A DNA stretch of 64,000 bases from Octopus vulgaris (Eukaryota): contig OX597831.1 of assembly GCA_951406725.2 (NCBI GenBank), forward strand, positions 19,344,001 to 19,408,000, in the 5' to 3' direction. The notes below the pieces were generated by a model that saw only the letters and a list, made by a program, of their open reading frames with translations, was not told the DNA's origin and did not search any database. Position 1 is the first letter of the stretch, and the number at the start of each line of letters is the position of its first letter. Shown one piece after another: positions 11,626 to 63,816 of this stretch. The translations under genes and the position numbers were made by a program.

Positions 11626-14539
11626 TACATATATACACACACATATTAAATGTTCTACTATATTATATTGTAAATCGAAAGATGTGTCCTTTAATATATG
11701 ATGAGTAAAATTTCAGCCATTTAATTTGGGGGAGAACTTAGCTATGAAATATTTTTTCATATTCCTCCTGAAAGAGCTGTCGTTCTTCGGACATTTGTAG
11801 AAGGGAAAGATCTAAAATTTCCTTCTCCACACGTAGCTAGGTGTGTACTTAGTGGTATTTTGCGTAGTTCTTCCTGCCGAATATGTTGTCGGTGAATCCT
11901 GGCTCACTGGCTCAAAGAATTACCAGTTTCACCTAAGTAATTCTCCTTGCACGTGGGGCAGGTTATGCAGTATTTAACGTTCTGCGTCTTGCAGTTCATA
12001 CCTGTATTTACTTTGAATACGTAACCACTTTTAAATCTCATCTCTCTGTTTCCCTCTATGTATTTGTAGGTGGGGGTTGCTGCAGATCCCACATCTACCA
12101 TCTCCGCACTCTTTTGCAAATAATTCCGTTTTAGTTTCCGAAGAGAATTTCGCTCTTGTTAGGTGTTTCTTTAGGTTTTTGTCCTGTCGTCTACTGTTTT
12201 TTATGCTATATTTGTTTAATATGTTTTTCATTTTGGGGCTTTGTACGGCTATTGGTAGGTTTGAATGTATGGTTTGGAAGATGTTGGTAACTCCAGGGTT
12301 GTGCGTGTTTATAAAAGGGATAATGTTTTCTTTGTTTTTTGTTTTGGGTGTCCTGATTTGTGCGATGTCTAGTTTAAATGCTCTTGTGATTCCATTTTCT
12401 ATTAGTTTAAGGGGGTATTTTTGCTCTAGGAGGAAGTTTTTGAGTTCATCTAGTCTTATTAGTCGTATTTGTGAATCAGTTACTATGCTACATATTCGTC
12501 TTGCCATACTATATGGGATGTTTCTTTTTGTGTGGGATGGGGGGGCAGGAGTGGAAAATTAGATATTGGTGTGTGTCAGTTTTTGTAGTGGATGTCTGTT
12601 GTGACGATGGAGCTGTGTATTTTGATGTTGATGTCTAGGAAGGGAAGTTCATTGTGGCTGGTATCTATTGTGAAGTTGATAGATGGGTGCAGCGTATTGA
12701 GGATGTTGTGGAATGTTCGTAGGTCTTCTGATCTGTTCCAAAAGATGAAGCAGTCATCGAGGTAGCGTTCCCACTTTTACTTCACTGAAGTTGTGTTCGA
12801 AGACTTTCCCTATTTCATCGTATAGTTTGTTCTCCAGGAAACCCATCATCAGGTTGGCATATGAAGGTACGAATTTTGTACCCATAGCCGTGCCTTTTAT
12901 CTGTCGGTATGTCTTGTTGTTGAATGAGAATGTATTTTCTTCGAGTATTAGTTGGGTGGGTTGGGTGATAAAGTTTGTCTTGAAGCGTTCGTCTATAAGT
13001 TCTCTGTATTTTTCTATCGATTGTTTTATTGCTTCTAGACCTAGGGTATGTGGTATGTTTGTGTATAGATTTATGACATCAAAGCTTGCAAGTATGATGT
13101 TTTTCGGGACTGTATTTCAAATGTGTGTGAGGAAGTCTATGTCATCCCTTATGTAGCTTGGTATCTGTGGGCATAAAGGTTTGAGGAGTATATCTATGAA
13201 GTGGTTTAGTTGTTGTGTTGGTGCCTGGGGTCCTGTCACTTTTGGTCTCATTGTGAGGTCTGCAGGCATTTGTATTCTTATATAGTGGTTCCTCTGTTCC
13301 TTTATGGCTCTCTGTATTTCAGAGCTTTTATGAATTTTTGGTAATCCATAAAAATTGCTTTCTTTGGTTCTTGAGTTGCATAGATAGTCTTTCTCCTTAT
13401 CTGTAAAGGAGTCCTGATATTCATTGACTAAATTTTAATTTCTTTTATTGTTGCTTTCTCCGGTGGTGTTGGTTCCTCTTTATAGTATGTCTGGTTGTTC
13501 CGTAACTCCAGTATCTTTTCTTTGTAGTAATCTGTATCCATAATTACTATTGCTCCACCTTTGTCAGCTTCTTTTATAATGATTGACTTGTCATTTTTCA
13601 GTTTTTGTAAGGCTTGTTTTTCTCCTCTGCAGAGATTCTGTTTGCATTTGTGTGTGTTGAGAGGGAATTTGGATATTGTCTCTATGTATGCGTCAAGGTG
13701 TTTGTCACTTCCCTTGTAAGGGGTGAAATGGGATTTTTTTCTTATGATTGAGTTATCTTCTGTTTCATTTATTTTCAAAGAATTCCATAAGGCGGAAGTG
13801 GCGGCTGAAGTTGTCTATAACAGTTTTTAGTTCTATGAGGTTTGGAGTGGGTGTAGGTATAAATTTGAGGCCTTTTAGTTGTAGGTTCATTTCATTTCCG
13901 TCAAGTTCTCTTTTAGAAAAGTTTATCATTTTGGGGTCTATGTGTTTTGTGAGTTCATCCGGAATTTTTGGTGTATTGGGTCTGGAGTATGGTTGAAGTA
14001 TCCTCTCCCTAAAAAATGGGTTGTGTTGTTACGTCTCCAAATTCCATTTTCAGTTCTTAGGTTTTCTTGTAGTTGGGGTGGTCTGTGTGGTCTGTATGTG
14101 TTGTTTTGTCTTTGGTAGTTGTTTTCTTCCCATCTTCTGTGTTATTGAGCCAATATCTATTACTGGGGTTCAGGTTTCTTTGTGGGTAGGTGGAAGGTTC
14201 ATGTATTGTGTTTGTATTGTATTGATAGTGGGGGTTGTTTTTTATCCATCTTGTAAATTTGTGGGGTTGCATGGGGTTGGTGTTTGTGTGGTTTCGATTT
14301 CCTCGATGTTTGTTGTAGGTTATGTGTTGATTTCTATCCATTTGTTTATTGTTCCATGTGTGTGTCCTTTTAGGATGTCCAGTGTTATGTGTTGGTGGTT
14401 GTTCCTATTCTATTTGTTCTCTCCAAGTGTCATAGGTTGTTGGTTGTATGTATTGTGCTCGTCTTGCTGTTTGTGTGTTTGTTTTTGTGGGGTTTTTGGT
14501 TGATGGTTGTCTTTCATATTTTGTGTATCTGTTTTCTGT

Positions 14540-15834: not shown

Positions 15835-16881
<1,047 letters not shown>

Positions 16882-50238: not shown

Positions 50239-50609
50239 AGTATACTTTACGTTGTCGAGCGGTTACTGTTTACATCTCGTTCAGAGTTTTATTATCGCTT
50301 GCAGACAGTTTTTCGAAATCAGTGACGGAAGTAACTGGGAAAAACAATAAATAAATATTTGCAAACAGGTCTCCCTTCATCGAAAACCGGTGATTGCCGT
50401 ACGCCGAAGACAGGCAAATACTTAGAAACTGCAGTCCATGCGTGTCACTTAGGTTTACGAGAGAGGGATGACTTCCCTTTGCAAATACCATAAGGTCCTA
50501 GAAAGTGTGCCTAAAGCCAGCTGGAGACGATGATCTCTTGAGGTTAAAAGCTACAGTAACATCCACCCTTAGTGGTTAGCCATATTTTGATGGCTAGTAT
50601 ACTTTACGT
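50239..50609 (+). mobile_element. Retrozyme-like monomer (357 nt plus 14-nt terminal redundancy) in (TA)n
   Basis: agtatactttacgt repeated at 50239-50252 and 50596-50609; collinear homology with the 358-nt unit at 62807-63773; internal hammerhead. Confidence 0.85.
50384..50456 (+). ncRNA. Extended type I hammerhead, slightly decayed
   Basis: aaacc-ggtga-ttgc-cgtacg-CCGAAGA-cagg-caaata-ctta-GAAA-ctgca-GTC-catgcg-tg-tcact-ta-ggttt; palindromic helix III ACTGCAGT; predicted cleavage after 50436. Confidence 0.8.
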
Positions 50610-53570: not shown

Positions 53571-54523
53571 AGGAGGTATGTATGTGTATGTGTGATAGCG
53601 TTAACGGCTTGGATTAAGATTGATCAAAATCCCTGTCGTAGTAAACTGTACAGGTGGGTAAGATGTAATGTTGTTTTCTCCATATGTTGATTGGGAAGTT
53701 TTATTATTCAATGTACTTTGAAGGATAGAAACAAAGGAACAAATAAAGTAAAATGCTTATAAGAATCATGTCCATATGATTACATCGAAATCTATTCAAT
53801 ACTTTATGCTTATGACTTAAACTGTTCGTTTCAATCCTGGATATTCTCCAAAATAAATCGGTATCTTTCGATGGAGAGACCTCTAAGAAATTTACAGATT
53901 GTCTCTTTGCGTCTGTGTTCCAGCGAATTTCTTGTAACTACTCTAACCTAATGATTCTGTGTTTCGAGTACATATCTCAGCGATGATTGTACTTTGAATT
54001 CCGAGTTGTACAATATTACAAGTTACTTAATACAACGTTCTAAAGGCCGTGCCACTTCCACAGTTTATATATATTCCATAGAAAGAGCTGAAATGTTCCT
54101 AGATTTAACGGTATCACAAAACGCCTGGTTGGAGACCAAACCATCCGAGTTCATCTACACGGTTAAAAAAAAAGCTGAAGGACCGCCCCAATAAGTGGGA
54201 ATCGGAGTAGAGAATAAGCTGAATAAAATCATAATTAGCTTATCTTTTTGTATTTTATTTCTCTCAAAGCCAGGAATTTTCAGCACCCCCTTGGATACTC
54301 CACAAAAAGGAGTCACTCGTCTTCTTAGAAATTGTTGCTAAATAAACCCAGACTACACATGACTGTTTGAAATAAACATCGATATATCGGGAAATTTAGG
54401 TCTAGGTGGTGATCACTGATGGAGCGCCTTACTTTATAGCTCAGCTTGCTCACGGCTGAACATAACAAAAATAACAACAAATACGTAAAGCTAAACATTT
54501 TTTTTTCCGTTTTGGAAGTGTAA

Positions 54524-54785
54524 GGCACAGGAGTGGCTTTGTGGTAAGTAGTTTGCTTACCAACCACACGAGTCCGGGTTCAGTCCCACTGCGTGGCACC
54601 TTGAGCAAGTGTCTTCTACATAGGCGCAGGAGTGGCTGTGTGGTAAGTAGTTTGCTTACCAACCACACGAGTCCGGGTTCAGTCCCACTGCGTGGCACCT
54701 TGGGCAAGTGTCTTCTACTATAGCCTCGGGCCGACCAAAGCCTTGTGAGTGGATTTGGTAGAGAGAAACTCAAAGAAGCCCGTCG

Positions 54786-61164: not shown

Positions 61165-62962
61165 TGTTTTAATTATTTTCGTTCACTTTACACTAATCTT
61201 CAGAATATAACAGAGGTGTCTTACATTTTCAATAAGATCAGGATTGATCAATTTCTTTCTGTGGAAGGTAGAAATGACATAAATGAAATCTTTCTCAAAT
61301 ACGTCACCTCACGTAAATTATGCCCATATCTATTGTAACCCCTCTTTCCGAAGATAATCTATCTTTGGGAAATCTGAATCCATAGTGTTAATCTCTCCCC
61401 CACCAAAAAACTATCGATTCCAATTCGCCACTGCTGTTGTGCTGTGCCTGTGATAAAAGATTATAGTTTGGATCAAAAATCAAAATTTTCGAAGCCGTGT
61501 GTACGACCTTTGAGTTCCAAGTCTGCTTCGATAATGATGTATGATTTTCCAGGAATGGTGACTGTTTGGGCTGTCTATTTTATGATGGAAAATTGTTAAT
61601 GAGTGCTCTTTCAACTCTGTGTAGTACAAGGTAGTATCTTGAGAGGGGAAATGTTTCACAGTGTCCATTACTGCTTTTTTGTTATTTGAAACAAAATCAG
61701 TGCTGATCGTTCAGGTTTTGTCTGTAAAAGCGTTCCAGTTTTGGTCGTACCATATTTCCTGCAATTGGTGTATTATTTAGGATAAGAACATAGAAAATCA
61801 TCTCACCTTTTGAACTGAAGACTGAATATTTTCTAAACACCAACATAATTATGTTCCCCAGTTTTTTTTTTGGTTTTTTTTTATAAAGTCAGTGCAAAGG
61901 AACATCTCACAATGGATATATGCCCTGCCTAAGTATTAGCGACAATACTGGTCTTTTGCAGTCATACTAAAAGCTGGAATGACTGACATAGTATTGTTGA
62001 CATTCAGAATTGCTTCAAACAAGAATCATTGCCGACAGTTCTTGTTACACCTAGTTCAGAAATAATTCCTTATCAAGCCACCATCATCTTATAAACACAC
62101 CAATCCACCACGGACACCTGTAAGACACCACACCAAAATCCGAACACACTGATAATCCAAATGTTACGTGACTGATTTCTAATATCTCATGAGAAACGTT
62201 ACGACAGAGCGTCGTCGATTCAGGGTGTGTGCATTAGTTCCAATCTGTGCCTTACTGAGAATCTATAAATATTTTGCACTCTATTTCAATCCTGAACAAC
62301 GAACTCCGAAATCATCTCAATAATCCGGCACATGACAGGGGCTGTTTTTTTTTACTTTAGATTGTCGAAAATATTTCGCCATTATGGATAATGAGGAGAG
62401 CTCCAAACATTCAAAATAATGTCAATACCATATTGGTATTTATCTTAAGCTAACAAATAAATTGCATGAAACGTCAGGTGTGACCAAAATAATCATTTCG
62501 TCCCTAAATAAATTTGTTTTAATAAGTGTACAACAAAGGAGACTTTGGAGCACATTTATCGATTAAAAAGTGAATAAACAAAAGTAATCGATACATACGT
62601 GTGTGTGTGTGTACATGTGCGTGTGACCGTTTAAGCGAAGTTGGTGTGTTCACAGTGCCAAACTCTGATAATACCCCCGACCATTCTCTTTTACTTCTCG
62701 TCTTGACTGCTACTCATAATTGTAATTCAGTTCTGGTCGCAGATTTATTGAAATTACATCCTTACGATACATACATGTATATATATATAAATATATATAT
62801 ATATATAACAAAAGGGACATTAGCCATTTGAATGTGGCTAGGGACAGGGCAGGGCGGTGGGGGTGTTACTGATGCATTTAGCCCCAGGCGATCATCAACG
62901 TCACCAGATAGGCTTGACACCATCACGGTGTCCTCTATCCTGCAAAGGGAGATCATTCCCCG

Positions 62963-63038
62963 AAGAAGCGGATGCCACATACGGACCCAGGTTTCAAGGT
63001 GTTTGCCTCTCGTCAACGTATGGTAGGCACCGCCCCTC
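62963..63038 (-). ncRNA. Extended type I hammerhead ribozyme (U3 core variant), copy 1
   Basis: Reverse complement: catacg-TTGACGA-gagg-caaaca-cctt-GAAA-cc-tg-g-GTC-cgtatg, with extended helix I. Confidence 0.88.
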
Positions 63039-63495
63039 GACGAACAACTCTCTGTGCAGGATATTTATATATAGATTTTCACGTAAATACATTTACTGAT
63101 TTCGAAAATCTGTTCGACAGCAATAATAATTCTCTAAACGAGATATAGACAGTAACTGCTCCATAACAAAAGCGACATTAGCCATTTGAATATGGCTAGG
63201 GACAGGGCAGGGCGGTGGAATGATCTCCCTTTGCAGGATAGAGGACACCGAGATGGTGTCAAGCCTATCTGGTGACGTTGATGATCGCCTGGGGCTAAAT
63301 GCATCAATAACACCCCCACCGCCCTGCCCTGTCCCAAGCCACATTCAAATGGCTAATGTCCCTTTTGTTATGGAGCAGTTACTGTCTATATCTCGTTTAG
63401 AGAATTATTATTGCTGTCGAACAGATTTTCGAAATCAGTAAATGTATTTACGTGAAAATCTATATATAAATATCCTGCACAGAGAGTCGTTCGTC

Positions 63496-63571
63496 GAGGG
63501 GCGGTGCCTACCATACGTTGACGAGAGGCAAACACCTTGAAATCTGGGTCCGTATGTGGCATCCGCTTCTT
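63496..63571 (+). ncRNA. Extended type I hammerhead ribozyme (U3 core variant), copy 2
   Basis: gaggggcgg-tgcc-tac-catacg-TTGACGA-gagg-caaaca-cctt-GAAA-tc-tg-g-GTC-cgtatg-t-ggca-t-ccgcttctt; predicted cleavage after 63550. Confidence 0.88.
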
Positions 63572-63771
63572 CGGGGAATGATCTCCCTTTGCAGGATAGA
63601 GGACACCGTGATGGTGTCAAGCCTATCTGGTGACGTTGATGATCGCCTGGGGCTAAATGCATCAGTAACACCCCCACCGCCCTGCCCTGTCCCTAGCCAC
63701 ATTCAAATGGCTAATGTCCCTTTTGTTATGGAGCAGTTACTGTCTATATCTCGTTTAGAGAATTATTATTG

Positions 63772-63816
<45 letters not shown>

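Follow-up and report, generated by a model that had tools for sequence, protein, structure and literature searches.

Near the downstream end of the window, which is the whole 64,000-nt stretch of the Octopus vulgaris genome analysed here, a 358-nt non-coding unit is found in two head-to-head arms. This copy is very likely a non-LTR retrozyme, the dead-end daughter of a hammerhead-bearing non-autonomous retroelement, that owes its insertion to an endonuclease-plus Penelope-like element (PLE) and its protein. Mobilisation by a PLE can be held with high confidence, and for the usual template we lean towards a monomer circle. The outer ends, which use a tail site and an inner site once each, the target duplication of about 12 bp and the same footprint in an autonomous PLE together argue that PLE machinery pasted the retrozyme, with both target ends priming. 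A first interpretation, made from the sequence only, had placed the element among the retrozymes and cited the proposal of PLE mobilisation; both are supported beyond the evidence then at hand, by 42 of 48 end pairs, by the 12-bp duplications and by the PLE footprint at 10 of 10 loci. Two mechanistic questions are at stake here: by what route animal retrozymes move, and how the tail and inverted arm of PLEs arise. PLEs have been named as a candidate by Cervera and de la Peña, and a mechanistic system has been called for by Craig et al.

Architecture of the Element in the Window

The 358-nt unit, its inverted, longer-than-unit arms and their (TA)n setting, as first described, are borne out (Table 1). 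Direct repeats within the element are spaced by 358 nt, the 414-nt left arm is 99% complementary, in inverted orientation, to 63316-63729, and (TA)n flanks the element on either side. Both arms, of 1.16 and 1.56 units, map to the circularly permuted unit 63416-63773, with four substitutions on the left and three on the right, and differ from each other by about 1%. The assignment of bases 62805-62806 is ambiguous between the left arm and the TA run. At its outer end, the left arm stops at unit position 314, the inner start site, and lacks the tail, while the right arm stops at position 358 and carries it. Terminal direct repeats were not found in the element. Its ATG open reading frames only reach 42-133 aa, and the subfamilies differ there by 1-2-nt indels. 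No frame with RT and GIY-YIG lies in the element or is joined to the unit, in the window or at 151 other loci. The two hairpins named in the sequence-only reading are present, and their inner stems are kept across subfamilies.

Table 1. The element and its parts, in positions of the window
Feature	Position	Strand	Details
Left target tract	62767..62804		(TA)n
Left arm	62805..63218	-	unit 259-358 then 1-314 (1.16 units)
Left-arm type I hammerhead	62971..63031	-	core UUGACGA; helix III ACCUGGGU; predicted cut after C62984; score 82.5 bits, with a model built in part from these same copies
Internal copy of the 44-nt tail, left arm	63119..63162	-	read-through
Head-to-head arm junction	63217..63218		2-nt overlap
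Right arm	63217..63773	+	unit 160-358 then 1-358 (1.56 units)
Complete 358-nt unit	63416..63773	+	GC 46.6%
Long rod (predicted)	63471..63598	+	continues helix I, hammerhead at its tip
Right-arm type I hammerhead	63503..63563	+	helix I 63512-63517/63551-63556; core UUGACGA 63518-63524; helix II 63525-63538; GAAA 63539-63542; predicted cut after C63550
Hairpin gacacc/ggtgtc within gatag/ctatc	63595..63627	+	inner stem kept across subfamilies, with compensatory change
Hairpin tagcca/tggcta	63694..63713	+	immediately before the inner start site; 4 of its pairs do not vary in 17/17 aligned units
44-nt tail	63730..63773	+	bounded by the two fixed start sites; more conserved than any other segment in the lineage
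Right target tract	63774..63813		(TA)n

A Dispersed Lineage with Several Subfamilies

The genome searched is a 2.8 Gb assembly of 227 contigs. With the unit as a query, 1,947 candidates were obtained at first look and 40 of them scored; a diverged relative lying beside a PLE locus, 83% identical over 41 nt of the unit end, gave 3,025 (40 of them scored). Exact matches to a 34-nt motif from the shared end number 1,374, against none for its reversed control, and the family-A hammerhead core is matched 220 times genome-wide. Dispersed copies, for which a genome-wide search had been proposed, do exist, and they fall into several subfamilies. Identity to the window copy is 82-97% in A, C and E and 58-63% in group B. 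The last ~44 nt are better preserved, with 81-100% identity to the window copy as against 58-97% for whole units. Unit length stays within 353-360 nt in 50 of 51 whole units, the remaining one measuring 374 nt. The tree gives no order for the core changes within A, C and E, and no core is claimed as the first.

An older copy of the same lineage is present in the window at 50239-50609 (+), 84% identical to a group-B unit and 72% to the window unit. It consists of a single arm of about one unit, ends at the inner start site in (TA)n and retains a decayed hammerhead at 50389-50449. Variants of the family also occur in contigs of four presumed-RNA sequencing runs, contigs which are silent on strand, ends, level and circle. 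Two stretches of about 9 kb (L118 and L119), 54 kb apart on contig C1, carry the same insertion set and apparently represent a segmental duplication. Another small tandem unit, with a canonical-size hammerhead, was met at L049:1-290 and L120; its core UUGAUAA and its ACAUGU palindrome match the pLTR of the 781-aa PLE family described below. Near it lies a further, unrelated head-to-head element, one end of which reads TTATTGCT into (TA)n. Several retrozyme-like lineages probably coexist in this genome. Elsewhere in the window, 54523-54723 holds two 99-nt tandem copies of a repeat that we take to be SINE-head-like; ARAGORN detected no tRNA gene in the 64-kb window.

The Insertion Footprint

Outer ends were tallied over 68 loci of A, C and E (47, 9 and 12, respectively). 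Group B, whose ends look similar by eye, was omitted because it is too distant from the reference sequences. A tail end was defined as lying within 8 nt of the unit end, and an inner end as lying 40-52 nt earlier. Head-to-head arms with variable inner ends are found at 48 of the 68 loci, and their outer ends fall at two fixed sites 44 nt apart, which bound the equivalent of the PLE 'tail'. One tail end and one inner end are combined at 42 of these 48 loci, and the other six have an odd end; no pair of two tail ends or of two inner ends was seen, in a set of loci picked by best match or by tail match, a choice which disfavours inner pairs and leaves tail pairs unaffected. The inner junction is shared by none of the 29 family-A two-arm loci, window copy included, and the longest arms reach 5.6 units. 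From the polarity of the arms, each of them would be a cDNA grown from one target 3' end.

(TA)n lies on both sides at 25 of 41 two-arm loci checked. Where one side is not TA, 13 of 16 two-arm loci show a target duplication of 12-16 nt, which is exactly 12 nt at nine of them, and three show none; only one of 240 mismatched flank pairs used as a control reached 12. At the window copy the duplication is unreadable, the target being (TA)n.

Three other origins were weighed against this footprint. The outer 414 nt of the element do resemble inverted repeats, and MITEs commonly target TA, so that a DNA transposon with long terminal inverted repeats, or else an assembly artefact, might come to mind. 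This is hardly credible and can be taken as largely refuted: the outer ends are 44 nt apart, every locus has its own arm lengths and inner junction, the arms of the window copy are about 1% different, the duplication is of 12 bp, and the same layout recurs at 48 loci and in autonomous PLEs. The other copies do not have DNA-transposon termini either: their outer ends lie at the two fixed sites, and their inner ends vary.

Twin priming is the L1 mechanism that gives an inverted arm, and a SINE-like LINE passenger inverted in this way on one RNA would be compatible with the arm polarity and the 12-bp duplication. It would leave unexplained an element with neither poly(A) nor a repeat tail, a second priming site fixed at 44 nt from the first, arms that overlap in content where one RNA should be split between them, and the identical footprint left by autonomous PLEs of the same genome. 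Such an origin is very improbable.

Slightly less remote, though still very unlikely, is a two-stage history in which monomers or pLTR remnants insert first, tandems and inversions arising later by local unequal crossover or fold-back; a satellite-birth route by local amplification is discussed in the text of bioRxiv 2026.07.22.740005. Later amplification does occur in this lineage, since L090-L096 are seven 119-nt tandem repeats of the unit end plus TA tract, amplified locally after insertion. The long tandems, in contrast, join tail to unit start without intervening target DNA; there are two distinct fixed outer ends, a single duplication encloses both arms, and the units of one locus are about equally diverged. 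Insertion of both arms by PLE machinery remains the preferred reading.

Six loci (L007, L019, L021, L027, L164 and L175) hold three- or four-piece insertions with same-polarity jumps within an arm. These jumps suggest template switching by the RT.

Penelope-Like Elements in the Same Genome

A GIY-YIG search of the genome gave 6,136 candidates, of which 150 were scored, and two intact PLE families were characterised. The first one (L051-L056) has an intact 781-aa RT/Zn-finger/GIY-YIG frame with RVT_1 and GIY-YIG matches, preceded by a frame of ~479 aa without Pfam match. Its CxxxxCxxC linker makes it look Neptune-like, according to the description in bioRxiv 2021.04.23.441226. Its tail measures 36 nt, one arm is inverted at L056, and its minimal hammerhead has U3-A8; the targets are (TA)n, in which both tail and tail-less ends are seen.

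The second family (L204, L206-L217, L057) has a 4,271-nt unit with 454-aa and 775-aa frames and an AC-rich tail, and forms seamless tandems of the full 4,271-nt unit; RVT_1 and GIY-YIG matches were obtained in a 574-aa truncated copy. Twelve of its loci were picked for close opposite-strand matches or arms, and the ten two-arm loci with both outer ends seen all combine one tail end and one inner end. Its minimal hammerhead has the core CCGAAGA, and older relatives (L034 and L060) have CUGAAGA. The 150 scored matches are 99-100% identical over the 130 aa searched, and the family looks very young. The retrozyme insertion, which had been called a recent event, is so in a relative sense only: its units are 1-2% apart within the locus, as against 99-100% protein identity among the scored PLE copies over the stretch searched.

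As to the helper, no autonomous PLE sharing the unit was found among the GIY-YIG loci, which align with it only via separate neighbouring insertions. PLE proteins compared by tblastn with the window and 151 loci yielded fragments in the window and at six loci, none of them joined to the unit. Two tail pairs 8.3 kb apart have no ORF of at least 200 aa between them, and pLTR homology of the unit to the two intact local PLE families was not detectable. Shuffling gave a tail as similar to that of the 781-aa family in only 8, 14 and 29 of 1000 cases for the tails of A, B and C, which are related sequences; for the 775-aa family, 563-715 of 1000 shuffles were as good, that is, there is no likeness. 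The former likeness is to be read as a lead only, because it was spotted by eye before the test. That the Neptune-like 781-aa family acts as the helper is accordingly a tentative proposal.

The window also contains a decayed RT/GIY-YIG PLE copy at 11716-13995 (-), with up to 91-95% protein identity to the L058 family, and a GIY-YIG fragment at 16535-16702 (-).

The Hammerhead Ribozyme

Each arm carries one type I hammerhead only. In both arms, a 6-bp helix I (CAUACG/CGUAUG) is followed by a 3x1 internal loop and five further pairs, helix II has four pairs with a closing G·U and the loop CAAACA, and then come GAAA, a short helix III and GUC, in agreement with the initial description. The 'complete hammerhead' claimed for both arms has fared less evenly. 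The fold itself stands, with one hammerhead per arm and covariation in all helices; its completeness does not, the core having been overlooked. In the conventional hammerhead numbering, the core UUGACGA of the window copy has a C3U change, which puts U3·G8 in place of C3-G8.

The unit folds with z = -3.23, better than 100 of 100 shuffles. Over 38 natural copies of families A and B, 93.6% of the cells are paired as against 85.7% in shuffles (0 of 500 reach the natural value), and a slid-partner control gave 23-50%. In these 38 picked copies, double changes are seen at 7 of 18 pairs, across all four helices, mostly reflecting a handful of between-family events and not 78 independent ones. Another 16 distinct matches show them at 10 of 17 pairs, with a bias towards the model, to which they were themselves aligned. 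Compensatory changes in every helix argue that the hammerhead fold is real and that the ribozyme has been under selection in the past. A scan with Rfam models, put forward earlier as a check, was run and detected no hammerhead: one search returned 38 matches, none to a ribozyme, and another a single match, to a miRNA model. A second hammerhead-like string further downstream (UUGAUGA...UAAA) was considered and rejected, since subfamilies B and C do not keep it and vary, over this segment, in the manner of a simple hairpin.

Past selection is also supported by position 3, which covaries with position 8 in subfamilies C and E (C3-G8 in 17 cases, U3-A8 in 11, another pair in one). Among the 100 family-A cores listed, out of 220 genome-wide matches, 53 have U3·G8, 47 U3-A8 and none C3; U3·G8 was found in 72 of 80 family-A cores in a sample biased towards the window copy. 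U3-A8 is reported in PMC3088659 as a known active natural hammerhead variant. According to PMC9901934, every single change in this region of a type III hammerhead leads to low activity, which makes cleavage by U3·G8 in the context of the window copy doubtful. Most subfamilies have a self-complementary 6-8-mer as helix III, and this palindrome matches the dimer-type hammerhead arrangement described in PMC4209133. At the window copy, a private C>T at 63543 (+ strand) weakens the helix III self-duplex, to -4.6 from -9.8 kcal/mol.

With the two ribozymes on opposite strands, no transcript would be cut twice, so that the window copy could not release a monomer circle. It is probably inert itself, a dead-end daughter. 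Two hammerheads on one strand are found at 7 of 26 sampled family-A loci, and such loci are better source candidates.

Monomer Circle or Linear Multimer

The template had been described from the sequence as 'circular or uncleaved multimeric'. This holds as a disjunction, within which the data lean to the circle, with one locus, L025, fitting a two-unit template. Divergence amounts to 161/14145 (1.14%) within arms, 126/10494 (1.20%) between arms in register and 140/10020 (1.40%) out of register, and this similarity favours a one-unit template. Out of 122 locus-private alleles, 112 are singletons and seven are present in all copies of their own locus. The steady unit length, held across subfamilies no more than 58-63% identical, and the lack of any shared inner junction among 29 loci point the same way.

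Two loci behave differently. At L025:1501-2569, three variants set the last lap apart from the one before it, and they do so identically and in one register in either arm (2/468 in register as against 7/335 out of register), a pattern impossible from a monomer circle unless the arms converted each other. At L167, a double change is common to laps 2 and 4, as in a two-unit repeat. Either a dimer template, whether linear or circular, or conversion at a later stage would be required at both loci. The donor of L025 was not found, and its variant pair occurs nowhere else in the assembly.

These two loci also lend weight to a reading in which a tandem donor is transcribed into a linear multimer that stays uncleaved and is copied by the same PLE machinery, the ribozyme with its U3·G8 being crippled and the subfamily spreading as a tail-bearing passenger. 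The C3U core would fit, and hammerhead mutants still insert in vitro, as reported in PMC11167929. Most arms, however, are shorter than two units, so that linear copying, in the absence of a long master, would make the arrays shrink. Among the matches listed (100 of 281 family-A junction matches), no same-strand run exceeds three, the inverted junction of a donor is found in no sampled daughter, and subfamily-diagnostic changes are present in every lap, which calls for a one-unit stage. As for L025 itself, the uniqueness of its variant pair makes arm-to-arm conversion possible. Taken together, we regard copying from a linear multimer as rather unlikely, without being negligible.

A Possible Insertion Cycle

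The cycle that best accounts for these data would start from source copies with two same-strand hammerheads. Once transcribed, their RNA would be cut as a dimeric hammerhead through the palindromic helix III and ligated into a circle of ~358 nt, as in the known retrozyme cycle. A PLE RT/GIY-YIG protein would then bind the RNA near its conserved tail and make cuts in the two strands of (TA)n, or of other AT-rich DNA, at a distance of about 12 bp; the duplication is what is observed, and such cutting would produce it. The target 3' ends would prime RT, one at unit position ~358 and the other at ~314, in line with the fixed, one-each ends observed; priming as such is suggested by the arm polarity and by PLE biochemistry. 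Each cDNA would run round the template for a variable length, the observed arms extending up to 5.6 units. Finally, both cDNA ends are found joined head-to-head, often with an overlap of a few bases, and repair would fill in the remainder.

A bolder, joint reading is possible but speculative. This could be the first retrozyme whose insertion scars directly record the PLE reaction, with one PLE complex acting on one RNA, cuts 12 bp apart, strict one-each priming and rolling round a 358-nt circle; the near-dead U3·G8 subfamily would still pass through the monomer stage, its ribozyme being rescued through dimer formation, through pairing in trans with sister subfamilies, or through the PLE protein.

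Comparison with Known Systems

Metazoan non-LTR retrozymes have been described in coral, in Mytilus mussel (~350-390 bp) and in axolotl (330/350 bp) (PMC7229834). The lineage shares with them a non-coding unit in the range of 150-450 bp (358 nt here), a GC content below 50% (46.6% here), short tandems, a canonical-size type I hammerhead with a weak palindromic helix III, a target duplication of more than 4 bp (12-16 nt here) and PLEs in the same genome. One subfamily also has the U·U at the base of helix II that is known from HHR_Amex2. In contrast, the sections of PMC7229834 consulted describe no head-to-head arms, no two-site tail and no fixed 12-bp duplication, the word 'inverted' being absent from the main text, and the window subfamily differs by its U3·G8 or U3-A8 core. 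Circles and cleavage were demonstrated there; for the present lineage both are predicted.

On the PLE side, PMC11167929 reports that reverse transcription begins within the RNA, at two neighbouring sites between which the tail lies, that the protein cuts and extends both strands of AT-rich DNA, and that insertion in vitro is independent of hammerhead cleavage. PLE insertions often include an inverted truncated copy, with the tail on one end (bioRxiv 2021.04.23.441226). Endonuclease-plus PLEs (Poseidon PAc, PMC11167929; Neptune, Naiad and Chlamys, PMC8557442) thus resemble the lineage in their partial tandems, inverted 5'-truncated arm, one-end tail, two internal RT start sites, AT-rich or (TA)n targets and hammerhead. 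The retrozyme differs by having no ORF, a hammerhead of canonical and not minimal size, and a tail of 44 nt instead of the cited 30-40 bp. Moreover, PAc in vitro is reported without strand difference in start site, whereas the insertions studied here take one end from each site.

Non-autonomous Chlamys elements such as MRC1 (PMC8557442) are likewise non-coding PLE passengers with multicopy head-to-tail insertions. They are green-algal, however, and generally resemble the 3' end of an autonomous element, where only a weak tail likeness is seen here. PLE mobilisation of retrozymes was proposed in PMC7229834 and PMC8557442, and is backed by pLTR homology in Xenopus (bioRxiv 2026.07.22.740005). 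The pLTR-derived Xenopus retrozymes (bioRxiv 10.64898/2026.07.22.740005) share this link, but the evidence given there is homology and co-occurrence, as opposed to an insertion footprint, and local tandem amplification is suggested where tandems made at insertion are favoured here. No cephalopod retrozyme came up in the literature searched, nor any retrozyme described with a tail, inverted arms and a 12-bp duplication, although Repbase, Dfam, subscription journals and supplements may have the family. For the giant squid, the genome paper lists 235 Rfam hammerhead matches, without analysis in the part consulted.

In this lineage, a substrate of 358 nt comes with start sites already mapped, a 12-bp stagger that can be measured and a strict one-each rule. 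Its core varies naturally (C3-G8, U3-A8 and U3·G8), and the genome also has intact ORFs that are candidate helpers. With these assets, the identity of the helper, the choice between circle and multimer and the need for cleavage become directly testable. It is not a new class, as inverted arms and tail are already PLE features and the retrozyme-PLE link is already in print; it is a retrozyme of known kind with a footprint that is, mechanistically, unusually clean.
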